The translations under genes and the position numbers were made by a program. The notes below the pieces were generated by a model. That model saw only the letters and a list, made by a program, of their open reading frames with translations, did no database searches and had not been told where the DNA came from. DNA of 20,641 nt from a virus (taxonomy: Duplodnaviria > Heunggongvirae > Uroviricota > Caudoviricetes). Positions 1,239 to 19,003 of the stretch are shown here, piece after piece. Where the stretch lies: IMG/VR virus record IMGVR_UViG_2537562190_000023, one strand, 5' to 3'. The stretch's first letter is position 1; each line of letters starts with the position of its first letter.

Positions 1239-3176
1239 TTACGGGTTATTCACTTCCACTGTTATACTTTCAATCAGCACCGGATATGTCGCACCGCTAG
1301 TGATATCGGTCACGCGCAATTTGTCTGCCGTAAACGTGCCGACCGGTGACTGTGACAGCATGAACGGCGTCCCGTCCTTACCATCAATGACCGGCGTCAC
1401 CTCAATACTGTTGTTACCGGCAAAACGGAAGCCCAGCGTATGCCATTCGTTATCAAATGCGCCGAATGACCCCAGCTTCGTGTTCTGACCAGCATTTCCC
1501 TTGTGGTACATCACATTAAGGTCTGTGGCATCGCTCTGTACGTAAAACGACGCCAGCAGGTTATGACCGGCATTACCTTCCAGTGTGACGCCCTGAGGCA
1601 GTGAAGAAACCGGCCAGTACAGCGCCAGTGCGTACTGATTAGCTGTCAGTGTGCCATCAACTTTAAAACGACAACTGATAAGCCCGCCCTTCTCCAGCAG
1701 GTCTGCGCCATTACCGGCATCATGCTGCATAAACCACGAGGAACTTCCTGTCTGTTTGGTCCACCTCAGCGCCTTACCTCCTGCAGCACCTGCATCATCA
1801 ACTACCAATGCACGCCCTCCTTCAGCTCCCCATCCCTGCGGATTCAGTAAACCACCTGACTCTGTTGCACGGTAATAAAGCAGCGTTGTCACTGATTTCC
1901 CGTCCGTTGACGGTGTTGATGGTGTGTCCGGTGACGGCTTCTCATCCGGCGGCATCACAACCTGTTCCCCACCCTCCAGTTCAGCCGTCCGTCCTGCATG
2001 GAGAAGAATCGCTGAGGCAAGACGGTCAGAAATAATCCCCCTGCGTGCCCATGAGCTGAAATGGCTCGCACGGTCTGCTGACGTCCAGTTTGCCGACGTC
2101 CGGGAGGCCGCACCGTAATATCCTGATGCCGGAATATCCGGGTCTTCTTCCGGTTTGTTCGTCGGGACATTTGCTCCGTTCTCATCGGTCATGAACGGCA
2201 CAAAGTGAATATTCTTTTCCGTTTTGTTTTTGTAACTGCCGTACACCGTCTGGTAAGTGGATTCGCTCTTCTGCTTCCAGAAATAAGTTGTGTCTCCACA
2301 TATCCAGGGAACACCGTCAGCAGAACCACCAGCGCACTGTCCCACCATATCTGCAAGGTCCGTACGATATTGTTCCACTACTTCTGTAAAACGGGCTGTG
2401 TGATTTGCTGGCGTTCCGTCAAAGTCAAATTCCCCCTGCATCCACACCACGGCAAGCAGCACATTTTTCGGGTTCTTTGCCAGCGCGGCTTTTGTACGAC
2501 CGATGAGATCCTTATACAGCGGCCTGCCCACACCCCAGCGGGTAGAACTCTCTGAGGCACCGGTCACGTCACTGTATGTTCCATCTGCCCCGGTGGTGAA
2601 AGCTGAACCACCACGGCAGCACGGAACCAGAAGAATACCCGCATTCGCCGGTATAAACGGCAGCAGCTTTTTGGCAATATGCAGCCCCTGCCCCACGGTT
2701 CCGTACTGACCTTTCGACAGGTCAGCTTTCGGATGGTTAAGACGGCTCATGTCCTGTACATCATGCAGACAGTGGTCTGCCGGAATAATGTCGTTATATT
2801 TACAGGGAGCGCCATCCGGCGTCACTGTGCTGCGACGAGCCAGTTGCTTTATACGCGGGTCAGGACGGTCATATGTCTGCGGCAGAGGAAGCCCCTCACC
2901 GTAAGCCATGCCGTTCGACTGCCCGGCCAGTGGAATAACGTAGTAATAATCTGGCTCCGTGGTGACCACTCCCGGATAGCCACCATCCCCCGTGCCGGGC
3001 ACAACCACTGGCGTGGTCACATCCCCCTCCGCGGCAATCGCCTGCATCAGGGTATAAGGGGTTATGGCCACCGGACTACCAAACGGCTGCCAGCCCTCTT
3101 TCAGTTTGTGTGTCAGCTTTTCCGCAAGATCTGACGGCGACGCCGCCCTGACAACATCATAATGTTTAATCGACAT
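1239..3176 (-). CDS. nanS: Prophage sialate O-acetylesterase of the NanS-p type (DUF1737 N-terminus, SGNH/SASA esterase core, C-terminal lectin-like domain), 645 aa
   Basis: Long ORF with ATG at 3176 and SD GGGAGAAA. N-terminus MSIKHYDVVRAASPSDLAEKLTHKLKEGWQPFG is DUF1737-like. The esterase motif PLAGQSNGMAYGEG (GQSN block) is present. Size and position (downstream of Q, upstream of holin) match the NanS-p esterases of Stx and related lambdoid phages. Confidence 0.8.
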   Translation of the reverse strand: MSIKHYDVVRAASPSDLAEKLTHKLKEGWQPFGSPVAITPYTLMQAIAAEGDVTTPVVVPGTGDGGYPGVVTTEPDYYYVIPLAGQSNGMAYGEGLPLPQTYDRPDPRIKQLARRSTVTPDGAPCKYNDIIPADHCLHDVQDMSRLNHPKADLSKGQYGTVGQGLHIAKKLLPFIPANAGILLVPCCRGGSAFTTGADGTYSDVTGASESSTRWGVGRPLYKDLIGRTKAALAKNPKNVLLAVVWMQGEFDFDGTPANHTARFTEVVEQYRTDLADMVGQCAGGSADGVPWICGDTTYFWKQKSESTYQTVYGSYKNKTEKNIHFVPFMTDENGANVPTNKPEEDPDIPASGYYGAASRTSANWTSADRASHFSSWARRGIISDRLASAILLHAGRTAELEGGEQVVMPPDEKPSPDTPSTPSTDGKSVTTLLYYRATESGGLLNPQGWGAEGGRALVVDDAGAAGGKALRWTKQTGSSSWFMQHDAGNGADLLEKGGLISCRFKVDGTLTANQYALALYWPVSSLPQGVTLEGNAGHNLLASFYVQSDATDLNVMYHKGNAGQNTKLGSFGAFDNEWHTLGFRFAGNNSIEVTPVIDGKDGTPFMLSQSPVGTFTADKLRVTDITSGATYPVLIESITVEVNNP

Positions 3177-3262
3177 CGAATTTCTCCCGTGTACAGGAAC
3201 AGAGTTAAAAAGCCGGAACCGGAATCAAATCACAGGATGACCATCTGCCAGTGGCTGGTCGT

Positions 3263-3291
3263 AAAAAAAAGGCCGCGCCATGCGCAGCCGG
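3263..3291 (-). terminator. Rho-independent terminator (minus strand) about 90 bp upstream of nanS-p
   Basis: GC-rich hairpin GGCTGCGC/GCGCGGCC (8 bp with one G-U pair) at 3271-3291, followed on the minus strand by a U8 run (plus-strand A8 at 3263-3270). Confidence 0.45.
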
Positions 3292-3653
3292 AAATAAAGG
3301 GATAACGATGATAGTTTGAGAAAAACAGAAATAACACTTTTGTGGCAAAGCATGGTGCCGGGTGCCTCCCGGTGAATTCAGTACCAGCACCTGAATCCGC
3401 GATTATCCCATATACCTGGTTGCTGATTGCCCCTCCGCACAGGGGGATTCACCATGCAGTAGTATTTTTAATAAACAGTAAACAAAAAAATCAAGCATTA
3501 TGCAGGCTGTTTCTTTTTATCACCGGCCACAGCAATACCACAATGCCGCAGACCAGCCCCCATCCGCCAGCACCGACATGATTCTGCTGGTGAAATCCAC
3601 CATCACCACCAGAAACAGCAGGAGTGCAGCCACAGCCAGGCGCAGTTTTACCG

Positions 3654-4046
3654 TCACAGGTGATTCTCCAGACGAAGCCCCAGAACACCGGCAATCTCTT
3701 CCAGCACCTTGCGCTCTTCCGGCTCAATTTCGCCGTCTGCCTCCGCAATGGCCACCGCCACATCCAGCACATCTTCCGCTTCACGCGTATCGCGTTTCAC
3801 ATCCTCGATCTCACGTAACGCCGCACGACGACCAATTTTAAAGTTCGTATCCAGCTGACCGATAATGGTTGCGCTAATCGCATTAATTTCTGACGTAAAC
3901 GCGGACAGCGCTGGCTGATTACGCAGTACCTGTTCGATCTTCGCTTTCTAGGAAGCCTCACATTCACCATTTGCACAGGCCACCAGGTATGCGGCGTTAA
4001 TCACCGCCTGTGCCAGATCGCGTTTCTCAAACTTTCCTTTTTCCGG
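3654..4046 (-). pseudogene. TerB-like domain ORF with no start codon and an in-frame amber stop; probable pseudogene
   Basis: Minus-strand frame reads ...KRDLAQAVINAAYLVACANGECEAS*KAKIEQVLRNQPALSAFTSEINAISATIIGQLDTNFKIGRRAALREIEDVKRDTREAEDVLDVAVAIAEADGEIEPEERKVLEEIAGVLGLRLENHL. The TAG is at 3948-3950. No ATG/GTG/TTG lies between the upstream stop (4047-4049) and the TAG. The C-terminal DGEI...EE...L..IA..LGL pattern resembles TerB/DjlA-N-type domains (from memory). Confidence 0.4.
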
Positions 4047-4147
4047 TTAACGTGACACACCAATAACTCTTGTCGAAAAAGCCAGCAAGCTGAAAGACCG
4101 GTATTCACAACCACCAGCGCGTTTACTGTACTGGCGTGATTTCAGTC

Positions 4148-4173
4148 ATAAAAAAACCCGCCTGGCGACGGGT
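4148..4173 (-). terminator. tR'-like rho-independent terminator about 80 bp downstream of the Q-like gene
   Basis: Minus-strand RNA forms CCCGUC-GCCA-GGCGGG (6-bp stem, tetraloop) followed by U7 (plus-strand A-run 4149-4155). Confidence 0.5.
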
Positions 4174-5446: not shown

Positions 5447-6507
5447 CAGTAACCTCTTTTACCCGAGCACGCCGGTTGCAAAGGCGTGATCAAGAAAACG
5501 AAAATTAAATCAACCTGGGAACCATGCTTTTCTTCGAACGCCAGCGGATCCGCATGAAGCTCGTTGTGATGCTCCCGACACAGCGGTAGCGTGAAAATAT
5601 CGTGGGATTTTGTTCCCATTCCGCCCTGACCATGACCAATCAGATGATGAGGATCGTCCGCTGGCTTACCACAACACGCACACGGCTGTGTCTTTACCCA
5701 GCGTGTGTATTTCTCATTTACCCAGCGGCGACGTTTAGGTCGTTTCATGAAGGATTCCGGAGACTCCGGATCAACGGCAATGCTGACCACCGTCTTTTCC
5801 TGTGGTGGGTTCTGTTGCTGGTGGGTGTGAGGCGGTAGCGCAATATTTTTTGTGCGCTGCTTCAGTATGCTGGTGGCGGTCTGCTCTCCCGGTACGATGT
5901 CGCTTTCGCGGTACAAGGAGCGGATTTTTTCCACACGTAACCCCAGAGAACGACGTAATACGGCCTCCGGTAGCGCGTCCGCCACCTGATTGCAGACCGC
6001 CCACCAGGATAATTCAGCCAGAGATAATTCACGCTCCTGCGTACCGCTTATTGCGTGACCGATGACGTCAATCATCCATGCTGACAGGTTTTGATGAGCA
6101 AGTTGCTCGAGTGATTCGGATGTCTGGTCCCGTAGCTGGTTGTCGCAGTGCCAGCACAACACCATTGCGCCGGTACCATAACGGTGAATGACAGTTTCGC
6201 TGTGGTGATAATCGCCGTGTGGCCACTGGCAGGATTTAATATGGCGCAACAGCCAGTCAGACAATGCACCAGCACCACCAGCAGCACGAATCACTCGTTC
6301 GTCGCTGAAAAATGGCAGCAATGTTTTGTCTTCCACCAGCGGCTGGCGAACGGCAGGAACGACCCCGGACGGCAGATTACGCATGCTTTTCGGTTCCGGC
6401 TCCACCAGTACCCGGGTATTGTGAAATACCTGCATGGATTCACGACCTGGCTTAAGGACCACCAGCCCGAGTTCCGGTACCAGAACAGGTCGAAGTAATA
6501 CCCGCAC
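5446..6507 (-). CDS. DUF968-type prophage protein (YdfU-like) with a C-terminal HNH-like Cys/His motif
   Basis: 353 aa. C-terminal region KRPKRRRWVNEKYTRWVKTQPCACCGKPADDPHHLIGHGQGGMGTKSHDIFTLPLCREHHNELH matches the DUF968/HNH-like pattern. Start lies 1 bp after the upstream stop. Confidence 0.6.
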   Translation of the reverse strand: MRVLLRPVLVPELGLVVLKPGRESMQVFHNTRVLVEPEPKSMRNLPSGVVPAVRQPLVEDKTLLPFFSDERVIRAAGGAGALSDWLLRHIKSCQWPHGDYHHSETVIHRYGTGAMVLCWHCDNQLRDQTSESLEQLAHQNLSAWMIDVIGHAISGTQERELSLAELSWWAVCNQVADALPEAVLRRSLGLRVEKIRSLYRESDIVPGEQTATSILKQRTKNIALPPHTHQQQNPPQEKTVVSIAVDPESPESFMKRPKRRRWVNEKYTRWVKTQPCACCGKPADDPHHLIGHGQGGMGTKSHDIFTLPLCREHHNELHADPLAFEEKHGSQVDLIFVFLITPLQPACSGKRGY

Positions 6508-6508
6508 G

Positions 6509-6787
6509 TTACCTCCAGATCCGTTGCTGGAATGTGCGGGACGGACGCGGTGGGCGTTCGGAGTAAGGAAGCCTGACGGAGATTATCCAGTGACGATAAT
6601 CGAGGCTGAGGGCTTTCCTAAACTCATACCCACGTCTGCGGTAGTTCTGAATCAGCCATTCGGCCTGTTCTTCAGTGCATGGGTCGTGCCGGAACCAGTC
6701 AGATTTGAATGCATGAGAACGCCGCCCGTGCCTGCTGGCAAAGACGGCTGAATTATCAGAATTGTGTAGTCTGGAATTTTGCGCCAT
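6509..6787 (-). CDS. Hypothetical protein, 92 aa
   Basis: ATG at 6787 with SD GGAGAAAG. It is the first gene of a tightly coupled run (this ORF, DUF968, rusA, Q). Confidence 0.45.
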   Translation of the reverse strand: MAQNSRLHNSDNSAVFASRHGRRSHAFKSDWFRHDPCTEEQAEWLIQNYRRRGYEFRKALSLDYRHWIISVRLPYSERPPRPSRTFQQRIWR

Positions 6788-6853
6788 CGGCTTTCTCCGG
6801 TGGCACAGTGTTACTCAACAGGGGTTCAGCCCTGCGCTGAATTGTAGATGAAT

Positions 6854-7114
6854 TCACTCATCTTCAAAAGCAGAAAAACCAGCCTTAATCCCAGCGTCTT
6901 TCAGAGACGGCAACGATGTGACAAATTCATTTGCACGCAAAATAAAACCATCCGTCACAAGCCCATCCACAAAATGAATTAACGCAGCTCCACTCTTCCT
7001 TTGTTGAGACTGTAAACATTTAATACGGCAGTGGCTGACAATAGCGCCATTCTCAACGCGCACAGTATAGAGGCCATCTTCACTAAAAATTTCACGTAAT
7101 TCTTCGATTTTCAT
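6854..7114 (-). CDS. Hypothetical protein, 86 aa (position matches rem of Qin-type prophages)
   Basis: ATG at 7114 (MKIEELREIF...) with SD GGAAGGA. Lies between the hok locus and the DUF968 gene, as in the hokD-rem-ydfU order of Qin as I recall it. Confidence 0.5.
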   Translation of the reverse strand: MKIEELREIFSEDGLYTVRVENGAIVSHCRIKCLQSQQRKSGAALIHFVDGLVTDGFILRANEFVTSLPSLKDAGIKAGFSAFEDE

Positions 7115-7230
7115 CAACAGAATCCTTCCAGATAAATAGCACTCCCCTGTTCGGGGTCCATCCCTCTTCTCCCTGCGCGCTACTTAAGTATTTTTGATTC
7201 TATTCCGGCGCCGTCCGGAACTTCAAACGC

Positions 7231-7266
7231 GTTGAAAATAAAAACAAAAACCCGCCGAAGCGGGTT
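7231..7266 (-). terminator. Rho-independent terminator at the 3' end of the hok mRNA
   Basis: Minus-strand hairpin AACCCGC-UUCG-GCGGGUU (7-bp stem, plus 7249-7266) followed by UUUUUGUUUUUAUUUU (plus-strand A-run 7231-7248). Confidence 0.55.
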
Positions 7267-7334
7267 AAGTGCGGGTGCGTTGAGGATGCCTGACACATCA
7301 GAGGTGGCGAGGGATTTCTCCCCCGCCTGGTCTC

Positions 7335-7490
7335 TTACTCCTCAGGTTCGTAAGCTGTGAAGACAGCGACCTCCGTCTGGCCGGTTCGGATTCGTACCTC
7401 GCAGAGGTCTTTCCTCGTTACCAGTGCCGTCACTATGACGGTTAAACAGATGACGATCAGGGCGATTAACATCGCCTTTTGCTGCTTCAT
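7335..7490 (-). CDS. hok: Hok/Gef-family type I toxin, 51 aa; an in-frame upstream extension to 7547 forms a mok-like leader ORF
   Basis: MKQQKAMLIALIVICLTVIVTALVTRKDLCEVRIRTGQTEVAVFTAYEPEE is a canonical Hok/RelF-type sequence (single TM helix, conserved Cys, acidic C-terminus). The 70-codon ORF 7335-7547 starts at ATG 7547. Confidence 0.85.
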   Translation of the reverse strand: MKQQKAMLIALIVICLTVIVTALVTRKDLCEVRIRTGQTEVAVFTAYEPEE

Positions 7491-7534
7491 AGCCTGCTTC
7501 TCCTTGACCTTTCGGTCCGTAAGAGGCAATCTAT

Positions 7535-7590
7535 ATGTGACGAGCATATAGGGGCCTCACTTCGATTTATAGTCGGGTGGGGCTTTTATC
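7535..7590 (+). ncRNA. Predicted Sok-like antisense RNA overlapping the mok translation-initiation region
   Basis: Plus-strand TTGACC at 7504-7509 could serve as a -35. A possible terminator hairpin (CCUCAC/GUGGGG with one G-U pair, 7556-7582) is followed by CUUUUAUC. The region is antisense to the mok start at 7547. Boundaries are approximate. Confidence 0.3.
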
Positions 7591-7792
7591 TATCTGCCGT
7601 TGGTGTTCATGCCCGAGGCAGATAGCCTCAAGCACCCGCAGCAATTCTACTTAACTCTGCCGTTACAGCAAGCCGTTTTCGTCCGATATGGGAATTCCCA
7701 TATCGGAATGAATTCAGTTCACCTGGCGAGGCTTAGCGTACAATTTTTTCCGTTTTGTGAGCTGCCCCTACATGCCGCTGGCGCGGCATCCG

Positions 7793-7822
7793 GAAAAAGA
7801 ATCCACGTCCTGAAGGACGTGG
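7793..7822 (-). terminator. Rho-independent terminator directly after the binding-protein gene
   Basis: Perfect hairpin CCACGTCC-TGAA-GGACGTGG (7803-7822), 6 nt after the stop codon, followed on the minus strand by AUUCUUUUUCC. Confidence 0.5.
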
Positions 7823-7828
7823 AGGATG

Positions 7829-8587
7829 TCAAGTGCCTTTCCTGGTCCAGCCATATTTTTTGAATGCAGGCGCCGCTTCATCGGTTTGTAGCCATTCTGC
7901 AAATCGACGGGTTTCATCATTTGCATCCTGACGTACTGTAATGTTCATATCACGCCATATCACGTAGTCTGGCGCTATTTCCACGACATCACCAATTTCT
8001 GGATTACTGGCTGCCCAGTCAGCCCAGGTTATCCAGACATCTGCTTCAGGCTGATTCTCAAGAGCCTTACGTGCAGTTCCGCTATTGGGCGCATATAAAA
8101 TAATATTTTTTCGGATTGCGGCGACAGTTTCTATATTCCCTTTACGTCCGGCAATATCTTCCCAGACGCCAGTGCCTGATGTATTACTGGTACCACCACC
8201 ATCATTAACAATTACGCCAATCCCGGGTCTGGTCAGGTCGTCAATACTCCGGATATTTTTAGGATTACCTTTCTTTACCAGTAAAATACTTTTTCGCAGA
8301 TAAAGAGGCTGAATATCTTTTTCACTGAAGCTGTCTTTATGGTCCCGAATGATAGCCAGAGCAGATTGTTCTGATGCGCCAAACAAGATATCTGCATTTT
8401 TTTTGGCATCTTCATTCCATTTGTTCTGTGGGCCGTAATGAACGTTCACTATAATACCTGTTTTTTCGGCATAAAGTTTGGCTGCATCAAGCAAGGCTGT
8501 ATGCGGGCCACCAGGACCATACAGATTGATATCAGCATAAGCAGCAGAAGACAGGAATATTAAAAAACCTGCCATTATGTTCCTCAT
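7829..8587 (-). CDS. Periplasmic substrate-binding protein of the ModA/AcfC-like family, with signal peptide; orphan (no permease or ATPase partner in the window)
   Basis: 252 aa. N-terminal signal peptide MRNIMAGFLIFLSSAAYA. Sequence pattern fits ModA/TupA/AcfC-type binding proteins as recalled. Strong SD AAAAGGAG. The flanks are visibly AT-rich. Confidence 0.7.
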   Translation of the reverse strand: MRNIMAGFLIFLSSAAYADINLYGPGGPHTALLDAAKLYAEKTGIIVNVHYGPQNKWNEDAKKNADILFGASEQSALAIIRDHKDSFSEKDIQPLYLRKSILLVKKGNPKNIRSIDDLTRPGIGVIVNDGGGTSNTSGTGVWEDIAGRKGNIETVAAIRKNIILYAPNSGTARKALENQPEADVWITWADWAASNPEIGDVVEIAPDYVIWRDMNITVRQDANDETRRFAEWLQTDEAAPAFKKYGWTRKGT

Positions 8588-8719
8588 AAAAAACTCCTTT
8601 TATTGGTTATCATGAAATAAAGTTATAAACACTACAAATAATATATATTACATCCAGATAAACTTATCCGACTTTACCTCGTGCATAGCTTGTTATTTAA
8701 AGTTAACAAAATAAGGAAA

Positions 8720-8779
8720 ATTATACGCATATTGAAGAGTATAAACCTTACATGTTGATTACATTTTTGTAATCAACAT
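8720..8779 (-). promoter_or_regulatory. Promoter of the binding-protein gene: perfect -10 plus an upstream palindromic operator
   Basis: Minus-strand TATAAT (plus 8720-8725) about 130 nt upstream of the ATG. Inverted repeat ATGTTGATTACA-TTTT-TGTAATCAACAT (12-bp arms, 8752-8779) overlaps the -35 position. Confidence 0.4.
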
Positions 8780-9446
8780 CCTGTTTGGAATAGCCAGCCT
8801 TTAATGGATAACTATTTCTGACAATGCAATGAGTATAATCAAGTCCATCTTCCACTGAGAATTAGAGGCGGCATGCTTTTTCCGACTCTTGCCGGATATC
8901 CGTAATTGTCCATAATCTGCAGATTTATACCTTCAGCATGACCTGCCAGCGAAAATTTGTCCGGTGTTTCTACGGAAATAACATCAAAAGTTACACGCAC
9001 TCGCGTTACCGTGTAGACCTACTTTCCTGCACTTGCAAGATCACAGTGGTGTAACCGTAACAGGAATTTATTCTCTGGACCGGCAGTAAATCCCTGAGTG
9101 GCGTGGTTCCCATATCAATTTCCAGCCAGGCAGCCTCCATTGCCAGCGTACTGGCTGGAGCCATGACCTGCCCTTTAAATCTGGCCCGACCATCCCACCG
9201 GACGTGTTCTTCTCCCCTGAACTTAGGTACAGTCATCTCCAGTGGCACAAAAGTGTCAGCGCCATGATTTTTGACCGTTATCGCGCTACGGATATTTTGT
9301 TGACTGGTGAAAATTACCCCGCAGAATCAGGCTTATTCCCTTAACCCGGGCTTTCATCCTGACCGCCGCCTCACTACGACCAATCAGACTGCCGATGCAT
9401 TTTACCTTCATTGTTAGTATCATAATTTCAGGCCTGCACCATCCGC

Positions 9447-10193
9447 TCATTGCCCGGACTTCCGACAAATCCCGGCAACCATATCTCGGTGCTTGTTCAG
9501 CTCCCGCAGCGCGGCGCAGACTCGCTCCCACTTCTGGACATGACTTTTCGCCCGACGCAATTCGCGGTTTGCCATATGCAGCGATGGTAAAACCAGGTCA
9601 TCCGCTCGCGTTTCAGTAAACGATGGCAACGATTGCACAATATCAGCCACAGTTTCTGTTTTAATATCTTCCTGTGTTGCAGCTTCCTGTACTGGTAACG
9701 CAACACCTGCTGACTGAGGAAAGGCTTTACCATCATTTTCCGTTACCGGCACGGATTTCGGCTCTGCTGGTAACTTATCGCCCGGCATGCAGTAACGAAA
9801 TTTACCGTTCTGGTTTACACGAATCAGACGACCTTTGCTGATTGCCATTGCCAGCGTTGAAGCCACTTTGCGTGATGTTGTACCGAACAACGTAGCCAGC
9901 TCATCAGCCGTTTGTGGTCCGCGTTGTTCAACCGTCGCAGTTAAATCGCACTCCGAAATTTTAGCGACTGTTGCCGTGGTGGTTTCTTCCGACAGTTCTG
10001 CCGGCGCTGGCTGTTCCTGCTGAACGTTGTTATAAGCCACACGCCAGGTGTATACGCTTTTATCAACGAAGCCAGCCTTTCTCAGTTCCCACAGCTCGTT
10101 CAGCACTTCTTCACGACTGATATCAAGTCGCGCAGCCAGCTCTACCGACGTGGCTTTTCCCATCGCTTTCAGTGCGTCAAAAACAGTCTCCAT
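9447..10193 (-). CDS. Hypothetical prophage protein with two winged-helix-like segments, 248 aa
   Basis: ATG at 10193 with strong SD GGGAGGAAA. Two HTH-like stretches ([30 protein letters not shown] and [33 protein letters not shown]). Lies directly after the replication genes. Confidence 0.6.
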
Positions 10194-10225
10194 AAATTTC
10201 CTCCCGGTAAAAATTACTTCTCAAA

Positions 10226-10891
10226 TCAGACAAACCCAGCCGCTTTCCGGCGTTCATATTCCTGTTTCAGCAACTCAATTGGCGTTGGTCCCGCAGGACG
10301 TTTGGGTGCTGCCAGTTGTCGCCGGACAGGCGGAACACTCAGGCCGTTGCTAACATGCTTTGCCCATTTCGTCAGCTGCCGTTCTGCAAGCCGTTTTAAC
10401 TCCCCTTCGGTCATCTGGCGTTCAATCCCCTTTGAACGCATCTCGAGGCAAATGTGATACAGCACAGGCTGAGACCACGGGTACTTATCACTTCCGTCGT
10501 ATCGCCAGGACTCATTGCGCCAGCGGCGGTACTCCTCCATCACAGCATCCACCGTCAGACCAAATGGATTGGCCCCGCTTTCCGAAATCAGCGCCACAAA
10601 CTCAGCCAGGTCCGGAGGCCATGTTTCACCCGCCCGGCAGCAGTCCATGCACTGGCGGCAGACCTGCCGGATTTGCTGCTCAGTCATCGCGCCAATCTGT
10701 GCAATCCAGAGCTTCGAAGGTGCGGCCCCGTTCTTCTGGGTCCAGCGGTTCGAATAAACCTCCCCCATGAGCTCCCACAGCTTCCAGGCCGTTTCCGTCG
10801 CTGATAAATCCGTTTTCACGTTCCCACTGCTCACGTGCTGCCCGAATTTCCTGAACTGCCCGTGATGCGGTTCCACCTGGTGCTGCTGCAT
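10226..10891 (-). CDS. Replication protein P-like (DnaB helicase loader)
   Basis: Similarity to lambda P as recalled (YPW motif, ELKRLAERQL, VPPVRRQL blocks). ATG at 10891 has SD AGGGGG, but this start overlaps the 3' end of the initiator gene by about 210 nt. An alternative coupled start at 10687 (ATGACTGA) would give 153 aa. Confidence 0.6.
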   Translation of the reverse strand: MQQHQVEPHHGQFRKFGQHVSSGNVKTDLSATETAWKLWELMGEVYSNRWTQKNGAAPSKLWIAQIGAMTEQQIRQVCRQCMDCCRAGETWPPDLAEFVALISESGANPFGLTVDAVMEEYRRWRNESWRYDGSDKYPWSQPVLYHICLEMRSKGIERQMTEGELKRLAERQLTKWAKHVSNGLSVPPVRRQLAAPKRPAGPTPIELLKQEYERRKAAGFV

Positions 10892-14324: not shown

Positions 14325-14806
14325 AATAACAGGAACCACCTCGCCTGACGTGGTTAAAAGCAGGCACACAACGCGAAAGCGTACGGCGAGGTAGCTGGTT
14401 CATAGATAGCCTGTCGTTAAATTTTCGTCGACCGTGCGCTTCCGGTTGTGGCAGTCCGCGAAATGGCGCGGCGGTAAGTATGGCTGGGGTTTCCTCCATT
14501 GCTCCAGAAAATGCACCGGGTTGTCAGGTTGACCATACGCTTAAGTGACAACCCCGCTACAACGCCCTCTGTTATCAATTTTCTGGTGACATTTGGCGGT
14601 ATCAGTTTTACTCCGTGACTGCTCTGCCGCCCTTTTTAAAGTGAATTTTGTGATGCGGTGAATGCGGCTAAGCGCACGCGGAACAGTTAAAACCAAAAAC
14701 AGTGTTATGGGTGGATTCTCTGTATCCGGCGTTAATTGTTAACTGGTTAACGTCACCTGGAGGCACCAGGCACTGCATCACAAAATTCATTGTTGAGGAC
14801 GCGATA

Positions 14807-16876: not shown

Positions 16877-17764
16877 TCAGGCTGCCAGATCATCGTTTCC
16901 GATGGAAGCATAATAAGCTTTTTCTGCTTCTGCCGGGGGAGTATGGCCCAGCCTTTCCAGCAATCGTCGATTGTTATACCAGTCCACCCACGTGAGTGTG
17001 GCCAGTTCCACTTCTGCACGGTTTTTCCAGCTCTTACGGTGTATTACCTCCGCTTTGTAAAGACCATTGATGCTCTCCGCCATCGCGTTGTCATACGAGT
17101 CGCCAGTACTCCCTGTTGATGCCAGTAATCCGGCTTCCTTAAGCCGCTGCGTGTAGGCCAGCGATACATACTGAGAACCTTTATCACTGTGATGGATTGT
17201 GCCGGACGGCCGACGGGCCCACAACGCCTGCTCCAGTGCATCCAGCACGAATGTTGTTTCCATGGATGATGAGACCTGCCATCCCACGATGTATCCGGCG
17301 AACACATCAATGATGAACGCCACATAAACGAAGCCCTGCCATGTGCTTACCCAGGTAAAATCAGCCACCCACAACTGGTCTGGACGTTCTGCCACGAACT
17401 GACGGTTTACGCGGTCGCATGCGGCAACGGCTTTCCGGCTGACGGTAGTGCGGACCTTTTTACCCCGGAGAACACCGGCAAGTCCCATAACCGCCATGAG
17501 ACGTGCCACAGTGCATCTGGCCACTCTGATACCTTCCCGTAACAACTGACGCCAGACTTTACGCACACCGTATACCTTGTGATTTTCATCGTATACGCGC
17601 TGTATCTCTTTCTTCAGCCAGTCATCGCGCTGCGCACGGGCACTGCGTTTATCCGGATAATGTCGCTGTTGCTGACAGTGGTAATACGTTGACGGGGCAA
17701 TATGCAGTTCGCTGCATACCGGTCCGACCCCGTACTGCTCACGCAGCTTATCCAGCAGTGGCAT
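16877..17764 (-). CDS. IS629 transposase OrfB (DDE catalytic domain)
   Basis: 295 aa beginning [29 protein letters not shown] and ending ASIGNDDLAA, matching IS629 OrfB as recalled. ATG overlaps the orfA stop (TAATG). Confidence 0.9.
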   Translation of the reverse strand: MPLLDKLREQYGVGPVCSELHIAPSTYYHCQQQRHYPDKRSARAQRDDWLKKEIQRVYDENHKVYGVRKVWRQLLREGIRVARCTVARLMAVMGLAGVLRGKKVRTTVSRKAVAACDRVNRQFVAERPDQLWVADFTWVSTWQGFVYVAFIIDVFAGYIVGWQVSSSMETTFVLDALEQALWARRPSGTIHHSDKGSQYVSLAYTQRLKEAGLLASTGSTGDSYDNAMAESINGLYKAEVIHRKSWKNRAEVELATLTWVDWYNNRRLLERLGHTPPAEAEKAYYASIGNDDLAA

Positions 17765-18090
17765 TATTTTTTCCAGAGGCGGTCGAACTCCGCCTTCGCA
17801 AAATAAGCGGAAGCCTGGCGAAGGATATCGTTACTGCGGCGCAGTTCACGATTTTCACGTTCCAGCTCTTTCAGACGCTGACGTTCAGCGGTGGTGAGTC
17901 CACCATCACCACTCCCGGTATCCCGCTCATGCTGGCGAACCCAGACACGCAGAGTCTCCGGCGTACAGCCAATCTTTGGGGCAATGGAACAAATTGCCGC
18001 CCACTGTGAGTCATATTCATCCTGACTTTCCAGAACCATACGAATCGCCCGCTGACGGACTTCGGGGGAAAAACGAGTATTTTTAGTCAT
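17764..18090 (-). CDS. IS629 transposase OrfA (HTH / leucine-zipper part)
   Basis: 108 aa [59 protein letters not shown]..., matching IS629 OrfA as recalled. An A6 run sits at the orfA/orfB junction, where IS3-family -1 frameshifting occurs. Confidence 0.9.
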
Positions 18091-18157: not shown

Positions 18158-19003
18158 GTGCAACAAGAACCAGAAAAAGTTTGCACCACATGTGGTCAGA
18201 CCGATGGCGGCAACTGCCCTGATTGTGGAGCGGTAATGGGTGACGCAACCTACCAAGAGACATTCAACGAAGAAAGCCAGGATGAAGCCCGGAAAAAAAA
18301 TCCGGAGGAAATGGAAAATGCCGTGCTCCCGAATAAGCAATGCACCGAAGGCGATCAACATGCCAATGGCAATAATGAAACAGGCGAGACAGCAAATCCC
18401 TTAATTACGGTGAACGGTCATCACGTTATCACATCCACCAGCAGGACGTGTGACCATCTAATGATCGACCTTAAAACCATGGGAAAAAATCCTGATGCCC
18501 CGATTATCTCAATAGGTGCAATATTTTTCGATCCGCAAACCGGAGATATGGGACCGGAATTTAGTAAGACTATCGATCTGGAAACTGCTGGCGGAGTCAT
18601 TGATCGGGACACCATTAAACGGTGGCTTAAGCAATCACGCGAAGCGCAATCTGCCATTATGACCGATGAAATCCCGTTAGATGATGCACTGTTACAATTG
18701 CGGGAATTTATCGACGAAAACTCCGGTGAATTTTTTGTTCAGGTCTGGGGAAATGGAGCCAACTTCGACAACACGATTTTGCGCCGTTCATACGAACGGC
18801 AGGGGATCCCCTGCCCGTGGCGTTACTACAACGATCGCGATGTACGCACAATCGTTGAGCTGGGGAAAGCCATAGACTTCGATGTCAGAACTGCTATCCC
18901 ATTCGAAGGTGAGCGCCATAATGCACTTGATGACGCCCGTTATCAGGCAAAATACGTTTCAGCTATCTGGAAAAAACTGATCCCGAGTCAGGCTGATTTT
19001 TAA
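18158..19003 (+). CDS. C-terminal fragment of the IS-split RecE-like gene: DnaQ-like 3'-5' exonuclease domain
   Basis: In frame with 15273-16834 once the IS and one ACC copy are removed (…[17 protein letters not shown]…). Exonuclease motifs [13 protein letters not shown] and [13 protein letters not shown] are present. First motif reads MIDLKTMG. The ORF begins with GTG at 18158; an internal ATG at 18461 precedes the domain. Confidence 0.7.

Follow-up and report, generated by a model that had tools for sequence, protein, structure and literature searches.

The abortive-infection protein BstA is silenced by aba, an anti-BstA DNA element that lies inside the bstA gene and provides self-immunity (Owen et al. 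2021, Cell Host Microbe, PMC8585504). In phage BTP1, aba comprises 63 bp, extends from −29 to +34 of bstA, overlaps the start codon and needs its terminal CCCGCC direct repeats (PMC8585504). Two-fold symmetric sites laid over the codons of a reading frame are also found among the internal operators, such as lacO2 in lacZ and galOI in galE, and the Rickettsia palindromic elements, which are 100–150 bp long, occur inside unrelated open reading frames (ORFs). In lambdoid phages, gene remnants at mosaic junctions are short stretches homologous to a gene that sister phages carry intact at the syntenic place. The present study concerns a perfect palindrome in the virus record IMGVR_UViG_2537562190_000023 (Caudoviricetes), the 20,641 nucleotides of which are referred to here as the window. 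The window represents a PPompW-type lambdoid prophage, as found in Shiga-toxin-producing Escherichia coli. The palindrome is located between the adhesin gene paa, a moron, and the hok/sok locus, and it is compared below with the described systems and with phage genes encoding a KilA-N domain, inside which the same palindrome is found.

Descent of the paa–hok palindrome from a KilA-N gene

The preliminary description of the window reported a perfect 24-bp palindrome, CCGATATGGGAATTCCCATATCGG, at positions 7683–7706. Sequence inspection bears this out, and the symmetry in fact extends by one base on each side. The resulting 26-bp palindrome, TCCGATATGGGAATTCCCATATCGGA, occupies positions 7682–7707 and has 13-nt arms and no strand orientation. 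The 24-mer has no second copy in the window, even when up to three mismatches are allowed. It was seen in none of 100 dinucleotide shuffles of the window, and the longest perfect arm over 200 window shuffles was 11 nt, with a mean of 7.05 nt, against the 13 nt observed.

The window region 6500–9500 was compared by blastn with E. coli prophage contigs that carry an intact KilA-N gene. Positions 7684–7716 aligned with the KilA-N ORF of the contigs L177–L190 over 33 nt with 94% identity, and the relic aligned with the KilA-N gene of L197 and L198 over 42 nt with 90% identity. The relic reads CGATATGGGAATTCCCATATCGGAATGAATTCA in the window, while the intact gene reads CGATATGGGAATTCCCATATCGGAGTTAATTCA. 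The sense strand of the relic is the plus strand, on which the codons ...(S/R)-D-M-G-I-P-I-S-E-L-I-Q of a KilA-N/BstA-C-like gene are preserved. Weaker homology to the intact gene continues leftward and reaches position 7675. The homology of the hok cassette to other phages ends at about position 7679, at the palindrome. In hok loci without the palindrome the promoter region is common up to ...CCGTTTTTGTCC, and the sequences diverge exactly at the palindrome start. There is no KilA-N ORF in the window, and positions 7684–7716 are the sole remaining part of the ORF of the L177 type.

Both sides of the relic are syntenic with sister E. coli prophages. In L177–L190 and L210, an intact KilA-N ORF of 257 amino acids (aa) lies divergently beside hok/sok and contains the palindrome. 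The hok/sok region of these contigs is 79–96% identical to window positions 7246–7649, the lowest value of 79% being found in L186 and L210. In L177, mok is located at 1448–1660 on the minus strand, the KilA-N ORF at 2105–2878 on the plus strand and the palindrome at 2276–2299. The conserved right flank of this slot is a gene encoding a 248-aa protein, which was identified in the window at 9447–10193 on the minus strand from the ORF list and by blastn. On this side, window positions 9478–10227 match L178, L181 and L186 with 85–92% identity (blastn). The slot between hok/sok and the 248-aa gene contains the KilA-N gene and about 1.3 kb of further DNA in the sister prophages, or, as in the window, the relic and a 1.76-kb paa module. 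The replacement segment of the window, which has no assigned strand, spans positions 7717–9477; it begins with 15 nt that are common with relic lineages lacking paa, and the paa module follows. These lineages share the right flank AATGAATT with the window and carry different DNA downstream of it. The product of the intact gene matches the Pfam KilA-N profile in its N-terminal part (E 5e-27) and the PADLOC BstA profile in its C-terminal half (E 3.5e-21). The BstA-like C-terminal half shares 29% identity with BTP1 BstA.

At the level of homology and synteny, these comparisons show that the window palindrome descends from the internal palindrome of a KilA-N gene and marks the junction of the replacement by paa. 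Three marks of a gene remnant were all found: homology to the intact gene, synteny on two sides, and the lack of any remaining frame together with decay across lineages. As in other gene remnants at lambdoid mosaic junctions, the short homology lies exactly where phage homology breaks, beside an acquired moron. The window differs from these cases in that the survivor is the one perfectly palindromic stretch of the gene, which is conserved at the nucleotide level across phyla, and in that the left breakpoint falls on the foot of the hairpin. Among the possible explanations, the preliminary description had listed a scar left at the edge of the moron by recombination or insertion, and the KilA-N gene that is intact at the same position in sister prophages supports this proposal. 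Other moron boundaries, where it had suggested looking for the palindrome, were found to carry it through shared descent from KilA-N genes and not as a boundary-specific signal. The palindrome can be regarded as a datable scar of moron acquisition, which marks the exact point where a KilA-N/BstA-like gene was replaced by paa. An unusual perfect palindrome is thus accounted for in a part of the prophage with medical relevance, where paa lies beside hok/sok in strains of the enterohaemorrhagic E. coli type.

We propose that the palindrome is probably a fossil of the KilA-N gene displaced by the paa moron, and that it is passive at its present locus. The ancestor prophage would have carried a KilA-N/BstA-C-like gene of about 257 aa in divergent orientation beside hok/sok. 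An illegitimate recombination would have taken the promoter and the 5′ part of this gene up to the left foot of the palindrome. The same recombination would have swapped everything beyond about 10 nt past the right foot for other DNA, which in the window is the paa moron. All that was left would be the palindrome with a few bases next to it, which now lie between two transcription units. The left breakpoint may fall on the foot of the hairpin because deletions and recombination events associated with replication end preferentially at hairpins and palindromes. The relic may still be perfect because the arrangement is young, and possibly also because short palindromes correct themselves by template switching.

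Of 5426 complete E. coli genomes, 725–867 contain the relic, and 577 of these also have paa. The intact KilA-N gene was found in 137 of the 5426 genomes, and no O157:H7 strain is among the 60 listed of these 137. One example of the 257-aa gene occupies 1554986–1555747 of NZ_CP023820.1. Variants of the relic carry a 1-nt deletion in an arm (L136, L303), substitutions in the loop (L301, L302) or changed outer pairs (L300), and the length of the surviving KilA-N flank varies between relic lineages. Judged by their sequences, these variants in other E. coli lineages look like the slow erosion of a fossil, and it is because of these eroded versions that the relic is read as a passive scar. Since hok promoters also exist without the palindrome, it is considered dispensable at the window locus, and we infer that the relic has no dedicated function there. 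The existence of two independent left junctions was considered as well; it is weakened, as an 18-nt deletion suffices to turn a left flank of the L006/L302 type into that of the window type. Relic lineages that lack paa have an annotated hypothetical ORF of 34 aa on the hok strand, the end of which falls inside the relic's right flank (L136 2636–2740, L300 1542–1646, L301 642–746, L303 640–744).

The palindrome within KilA-N genes

The exact 24-mer was found in 52 viral contigs. About 40 of these have the same paa–hok arrangement, and in the others the contexts are unrelated. The 20-mer core is present at 82 loci of a one-genome-per-species collection, which belong to Cyanobacteria, Bacteroidota, Chloroflexota, Patescibacteria, Spirochaetes, Firmicutes and Alpha-, Beta- and Gammaproteobacteria. 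The number of matches expected by chance for the 20-mer, estimated from the database size, is about 0.5. Of all occurrences, 52 lie within ORFs that match the KilA-N profile, always at one homologous position. Chance or a sequencing or assembly artefact, such as a linker or adaptor, is a practically negligible explanation. The centre of the palindrome is an EcoRI site, as in some synthetic linkers, and an adaptor was considered since the 24-mer occurs in unrelated metagenomic contigs. This was rejected in view of the shuffled windows and of the in-frame copies within conserved genes of many phyla; moreover, the palindrome is present in hundreds of complete E. coli genomes from separate sequencing efforts and in deposited phage genomes.

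In the KilA-N genes the palindrome is embedded in the context ...RLKSTxxFLxELS-x-DMGIPIS-x-LVQxIKGG...QGTWVHP. It is located about 170 nt into the coding sequence of the intact gene, is 22–26 bp long and encodes the loop D-M-G-I-P-I-S. We define the KilA-N intragenic palindrome as a two-fold symmetric sequence of 20–24 nt centred on the G-I-P codons (GGAATTCC). The window copy is identical to its commonest type, GATATGGGAATTCCCATATC. Alignment to the APSES domain of Mbp1 places the DMGIPIS peptide in the loop after KilA-N helix B. This region is regarded as tolerant because part of the peptide is an insertion relative to Mbp1. The KilA-N genes with the palindrome have at least three different C-terminal halves, and the biggest group matches BstA. 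Two samples of KilA-N genes were fetched through protein motifs located elsewhere in the domain, and their selection was therefore blind to the palindrome. In these samples the segment is nowhere inserted or deleted, and most members have it in palindromic form; homologues without the palindrome have a segment of the same length.

The two arms of the palindrome vary together. Compensated 24-mers were found with the sequences CCGATATCGGAATTCCGATATCGG (loop DIGIPIS), CCGAGGTCGGAATTCCGACCTCGG (loop EVGIPTS), CCGAAACCGGAATTCCGGTTTCGG (loop ETGIPVS), GGTCAACGGGAATTCCCGTTGACC (loop STGIPVD), CGGAAACGGGATATCCCGTTTCCG (loop ETGYPVS) and CCGATGCGGGAATTCCCGCATCGG (loop DAGIPAS). Covariation was tested on 87 distinct 36-nt segments, which were anchored, without regard to the palindrome, on a column of the hidden Markov model and evaluated as a 12-pair helix. 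The proportion of paired cells was 74.6%, compared with 58.3 ± 1.0% in shuffles (0 of 500) and 35–46% when the helix was slid. Cells changed on both sides numbered 168, against 70.8 ± 6.0 in the control, and the covariation score was 0.396, against 0.152. Of the 12 pairs, 9.44 were formed, compared with 6.81 ± 0.13 after synonymous-codon resampling. Pairs that consist of two third-codon positions were complementary in 76–90% of cases, versus 20–27% after synonymous resampling. Compensatory changes were observed at all 12 tested pairs of the 87 segments.

A subgroup of KilA-N genes of the Saprospiraceae/Haliscomenobacter type (L054, L061, L080, L103, L110 and L131) carries the identical DNA at the same place, read in another frame as RYGNSHIA. 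A few extra residues downstream bring the frame back in these genes. The identical DNA is thus read in a second frame, and therefore the constraint is on the nucleic acid and shapes the protein. A plain protein motif that is palindromic by coincidence is ruled out by this second frame, by the compensated variants and by the tests on synonymous codons and third positions. At the four central bases, which read AATT in 49, GATT in 11 and AATC in 8 segments, the variation is not compensated. Mismatches in the stem, read on the sense strand, comprise 12 G·T and 18 A·C and show no wobble bias. An RNA hairpin of the sense strand in KilA-N genes is unsupported, there being no G·U bias on this strand. 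These observations argue for a strand-symmetric constraint at the DNA level.

In the intact KilA-N gene the palindrome most likely acts as DNA. Its candidate role, which is the least certain point of our proposal, would be that of a two-fold symmetric site or a cruciform to which the KilA-N protein itself responds, and such putative recognition would serve autoregulation or self-recognition. Like lacO2 and galOI, the palindrome is a symmetric site within a reading frame. Those internal operators are species-specific and lack arm-to-arm covariation across distant taxa, unlike the KilA-N palindrome. Most KilA-N genes also have no second, promoter-proximal site. Extra hairpins are enriched near KilA-N genes, and upstream operator sites for looping with the internal one were considered; they were rejected, since the inspected extra hairpins carry KilA-N-like flanks and represent remnants of paralogues. 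Such remnant hairpins were found in L225, L229 and L057, among other places just upstream of intact KilA-N genes. The KilA-N gene of L225 is preceded by one at 150 nt before its start. At positions 34–121 of the same contig, about 1.4 kb upstream of the KilA-N gene, a C4 antisense RNA of the P1/P7 immI type is located. In L057 (Calothrix, 2005–4148), the palindrome-bearing KilA-N gene lies between a ParA-type ATPase gene with a small downstream ORF and a gene for a RecD/PIF1-like helicase, and a 345-nt spacer contains two remnant hairpins. Such neighbours suggest that the locus belongs to a plasmid or mobile element.

The searchable literature yielded no account of the KilA-N palindrome. The phylum-spanning, covarying palindrome in KilA-N genes and its stand-alone copies elsewhere are new, while a gene remnant at a mosaic junction is in itself ordinary. 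The palindrome represents a nucleic-acid element in a widespread phage gene family, with compensatory conservation strong enough to constrain the protein sequence. If it is a recognition site of KilA-N domains, it would offer a first handle on the targets of these poorly characterised DNA-binding domains and a hint of how BstA-like systems tell self from non-self. If nothing but self-correction through template switching maintains it, the palindrome would be a noteworthy example of a self-perpetuating sequence that shapes a protein.

Stand-alone copies, hairpin arrays and the role of the relic

The exact 20-mer also occurs in 32 places outside KilA-N genes in the one-genome-per-species data, far above the chance expectation. 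No KilA-N gene was found near these orphan 20-mer copies. A second hairpin type, GATATCGGAATTCCGATATC, has 34 copies in KilA-N genes and 18 copies outside them in the viral contigs. Hairpin-only copies of the DMGIPIS or DIGIPIS type are located in frame in the linkers or termini of unrelated phage genes (L038, L055, L135, L306, L331, L318 and L354). Their hosts encode RecT, AAA_24/Sak4-like, Rha, D5_N primase, Prim-Pol/DUF3987, DNA methylase and integrase proteins. The peptide DMGIPIS-(E/Q)-x-(D/N)-Q-(Q/R)-V, which extends past the palindrome, is common to three proteins that otherwise differ, namely a giant protein of an Azospirillum prophage, a RecT and a Comamonas protein of 199 aa (L094/L049, L038 and L074). 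Judging from this peptide, a unit slightly longer than the palindrome may have been transferred among them.

Tandem arrays of three to five hairpins were found in apparently non-coding, mobile-element-like regions. The hairpins of an array have the centre GGAATTCC in common, and their stems are different but individually compensated. The arrays are located at 2528–2705 in L075, 5806–6965 in L063, 7879–7973 in L104 and 4455–4496 in L120, and a further one is present in L129. The L075 array contains five GGAATTCC-centred hairpins in 170 bp, and an integrase gene adjoins the L063 array. Neither a KilA-N gene nor KilA-N-like flanks were found at the hairpin arrays.

These copies bear on the possibility that the palindrome is an autonomous mobile mini-palindrome of about 22–24 bp that would spread by itself into hairpin loops, linkers and intergenic DNA, and of which KilA-N genes are the commonest hosts and the window copy an insertion. 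We regard this as very unlikely. The orphan copies agree with it, and so does the lack of a stop codon in any frame. Some copies are further extended by palindromic flanks or embedded in terminator-like stems. In L078 (7737–7778) and L089 (7659–7700), both of Patescibacteria, the 20-mer is the centre of an intergenic perfect palindrome of 42 bp (CATACTCCCGG...CCGGGAGTATG), and in L097 it forms the centre of a terminator-like hairpin with an A-run, a stem and a T-run. However, an insertion is at odds with the constant length of the KilA-N segment, which is never an indel, and with the KilA-N flanking sequence that accompanies the window copy and several others. No target-site duplications or genomes with multiple copies were seen, and the flanks of orphan copies are inverted and not direct. 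At a few orphan loci the neighbouring genes were examined, short of a systematic search, and no transposase was noticed among them. The palindrome shares with the Rickettsia palindromic elements the absence of stop codons in every frame, the use of more than one reading frame (DMGIPIS and RYGNSHI) and the location inside unrelated ORFs. It differs from them in its length of about 24 bp, its single homologous position without indels in KilA-N genes, its lack of multiple copies within genomes and its phylum-spanning distribution. The ORF just downstream of the L078 and L089 palindromes presumably encodes a protein resembling elongation factor P, by our reading of the sequence.

A second alternative is that the palindrome is a retained DNA site for BstA-like KilA-N proteins, i.e., an aba-like decoy or self-mark. 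After the loss of the gene, the site would have been kept to shield the replicating prophage DNA from KilA-N/BstA-like proteins of other prophages or new hosts. By analogy with aba, we consider this reading possible but unlikely. BstA systems contain a DNA self-immunity element within their own locus, which is active in cis and in trans (PMC8585504), and the source gene of the relic encodes a BstA-type C-terminal domain. Like aba, the palindrome is a short DNA element in the coding region of a phage KilA-N(-like)/BstA-C gene, present as a single copy per phage. The phage vB_EcoS-613R10, which has the intact gene, carries one palindrome within this gene, and multiple palindrome target sites were not found in its genome. 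The strand-symmetric constraint at the nucleotide level fits DNA, rather than protein or RNA, as the active form, as is the case for aba. Stem sequences differ between KilA-N lineages, so that cognate specificity would be possible. Orphans of the two hairpin types are far above chance and lie in tolerant linkers and ends of phage replication and recombination genes, and the arrays mix several hairpin types.

The palindrome is nevertheless not the published aba element, from which it differs in sequence and position. The aba of BTP1 is not palindromic and depends on direct repeats, whereas the palindrome measures 22–26 bp and lies well inside the gene, in the part coding for the KilA-N domain; any aba-like activity is putative. 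BTP1 BstA has a different N-terminal domain, and no such palindrome is present at the BTP1 bstA locus. BstA-Ec of Owen et al. 2021 was likewise set aside, being of the BTP1 type and not of the canonical KilA-N type. In the window there is neither a bstA nor a KilA-N gene that would define an aba locus. None of the proteins in this KilA-N subfamily is an established defence protein. The exact 20-mer is common to KilA-N genes with three C-termini, including genes without a BstA-type C-terminus, and to many phyla, which is a poor fit with homolog-specific immunity. Most relic-bearing E. coli genomes lack the intact gene, and among the rows sampled the relic and the intact gene did not co-occur in one E. 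coli, as would be expected for within-cell immunity. The eroded relics of other E. coli lineages also speak against a retained site. If this reading were true, the E. coli prophage of the O157/O145 type would have lost the defence gene and retained an immunity site. In the broader form of this reading, KilA-N genes of many phyla would carry an undescribed cis-acting DNA hairpin, and the stand-alone copies would be functional as self-marks, decoys or other KilA-N targets. This form, which also draws on the analogy with aba, is put forward only tentatively and appears rather doubtful.

Several findings weigh against a purely passive fossil, which we still consider the probable explanation of the window copy. 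Only 33–42 nt of homology to the intact gene are left, and because most of this is the palindrome itself, the case for the relic leans heavily on synteny and on about 10 bases beyond the palindrome. The perfect symmetry of the relic covers 26 bp, slightly more than the 22 bp of the closest intact E. coli genes. The relic core shows 0–1 changes between lineages whose hok flanks are about 13% different, which makes selection possible; this conservation is indecisive, because the adjacent 13 nt are conserved equally. The in-frame hairpin-only copies and the arrays are hard to explain by gene decay and suggest that the hairpin can be kept for its own sake. A functional reading is kept open mainly because gene decay leaves the arrays unexplained.

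Two contigs of one Alcaligenaceae metagenome-assembled genome, L086 and L125, both start 23 nt before a palindrome copy (24–43), and do so with identical sequence. A T-arm-like motif, GGTTCGAGTCCCGC, follows the palindrome in both. An association of these contig-end copies with tRNA or tmRNA was rejected, as ARAGORN finds none.

Neighbourhood of the palindrome in the window

The location between the terminator of the moron and the hok promoter, as given in the preliminary description, agrees with the ORFs, the terminator scan and the Rfam matches. The gene paa/adfO, encoding an adhesin of the AcfC family, occupies positions 7829–8587 on the minus strand according to the ORF list and the annotations of related records. 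Immediately behind its stop codon, the terminator scan detected a terminator-like hairpin with a T-run (7802–7823, minus strand), about 95 nt from the palindrome. Elsewhere in the window, near-palindromes with 10 of 12 pairs are located at 18795–18818 (AACGGCAGGGGATCCCCTGCCCGT) and, upstream of paa, at 8754–8777 (GTTGATTACATTTTTGTAATCAAC). On the other side of the palindrome, the putative hok promoter was recognised by reading the sequence of the minus strand (7644–7671), with the −35 box TTGCTG at 7671–7666 and the −10 box TAGAAT at 7649–7644; a consensus promoter scan did not call it. The 5′ region of the hok mRNA and the sok antisense RNA match Rfam RF01794 at 7488–7637 on the minus strand (103.9 bits, E 5.5e-23). 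The mok/hok frame, a 70-aa ORF annotated as gef/hokD in related records, is located at 7335–7547 on the minus strand (ORF list and annotations). A terminator-like hairpin with a T-run, found by the terminator scan at 7249–7266 on the same strand, lies at the end of the hok transcript.

The palindrome itself is predicted to form a stem of 11 bp with a 4-nt loop. The predicted stability is −26.2 kcal/mol for the RNA hairpin (z −3.7, for a 71-nt RNA containing the palindrome) and −11.4 kcal/mol for the DNA hairpin (z −4.4). The palindrome thus resembles intrinsic terminators in being a stable, G+C-closed stem-loop between two transcription units. It differs from them in that no U/T-run follows the stem on either strand, the flanks being ACGAAAACGG on the minus and AATGAATTCA on the plus strand, and in that a bona fide terminator already lies upstream. 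The terminator scan of the window did not call it. An intrinsic terminator is ruled out by the stem without U-run, in agreement with the preliminary description. The further idea put forward there, an RNA-processing structure, is unsupported: the palindrome precedes the start of the hok mRNA and lies past the paa terminator, and no G·U bias was observed. A binding site for a dimeric protein, also named there, is a possible reading; in its home gene the element is under a strand-symmetric constraint, while at the window locus nothing requires it. The Rfam model for sok/hok ends at 7637, 46–69 nt short of the palindrome, which is therefore outside both RNAs. At gathering thresholds, none of the Rfam 15 covariance models matched the palindrome, either in the window or in six scanned loci with an intact KilA-N gene.

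Relative to the hok mRNA start given by the putative promoter, the palindrome lies at about −46 to −69. A dimeric regulator of the host or a phage might accordingly bind there and modulate hok/mok transcription, the palindrome being an operator or upstream element of this promoter, or the hairpin might act as an insulator that blocks read-through from paa into hok; we consider this alternative distinctly unlikely. A site upstream of the −35 box is typical for a class I activator or an UP-element, the distance to the promoter is the same in the paa-type and the HUSEC-type lineages, and a stable hairpin is predicted in any read-through transcript. However, hok promoters of the same type function without the palindrome in many prophages and at the chromosomal hokD locus, and it is absent from the hokD loci of ATCC 43886 and MS6198 and from the hokW loci of the 933W type. 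Its distance to the promoter is not fixed either, being 18 nt greater in the L006 lineage, and in the sister phages the same sequence is located about 500 nt away in a coding region. An insulator is further opposed by the terminator that paa already has and by the missing U-run.

Further Rfam matches in the window are the DicF antisense RNA at 14581–14632 on the plus strand and the STnc100 small RNA at 3317–3483 on the minus strand. The ALIL pseudoknot at 17693–17809 on the minus strand is a frameshift element of the IS3 family and points to an insertion sequence at about 16.9–18.1 kb.

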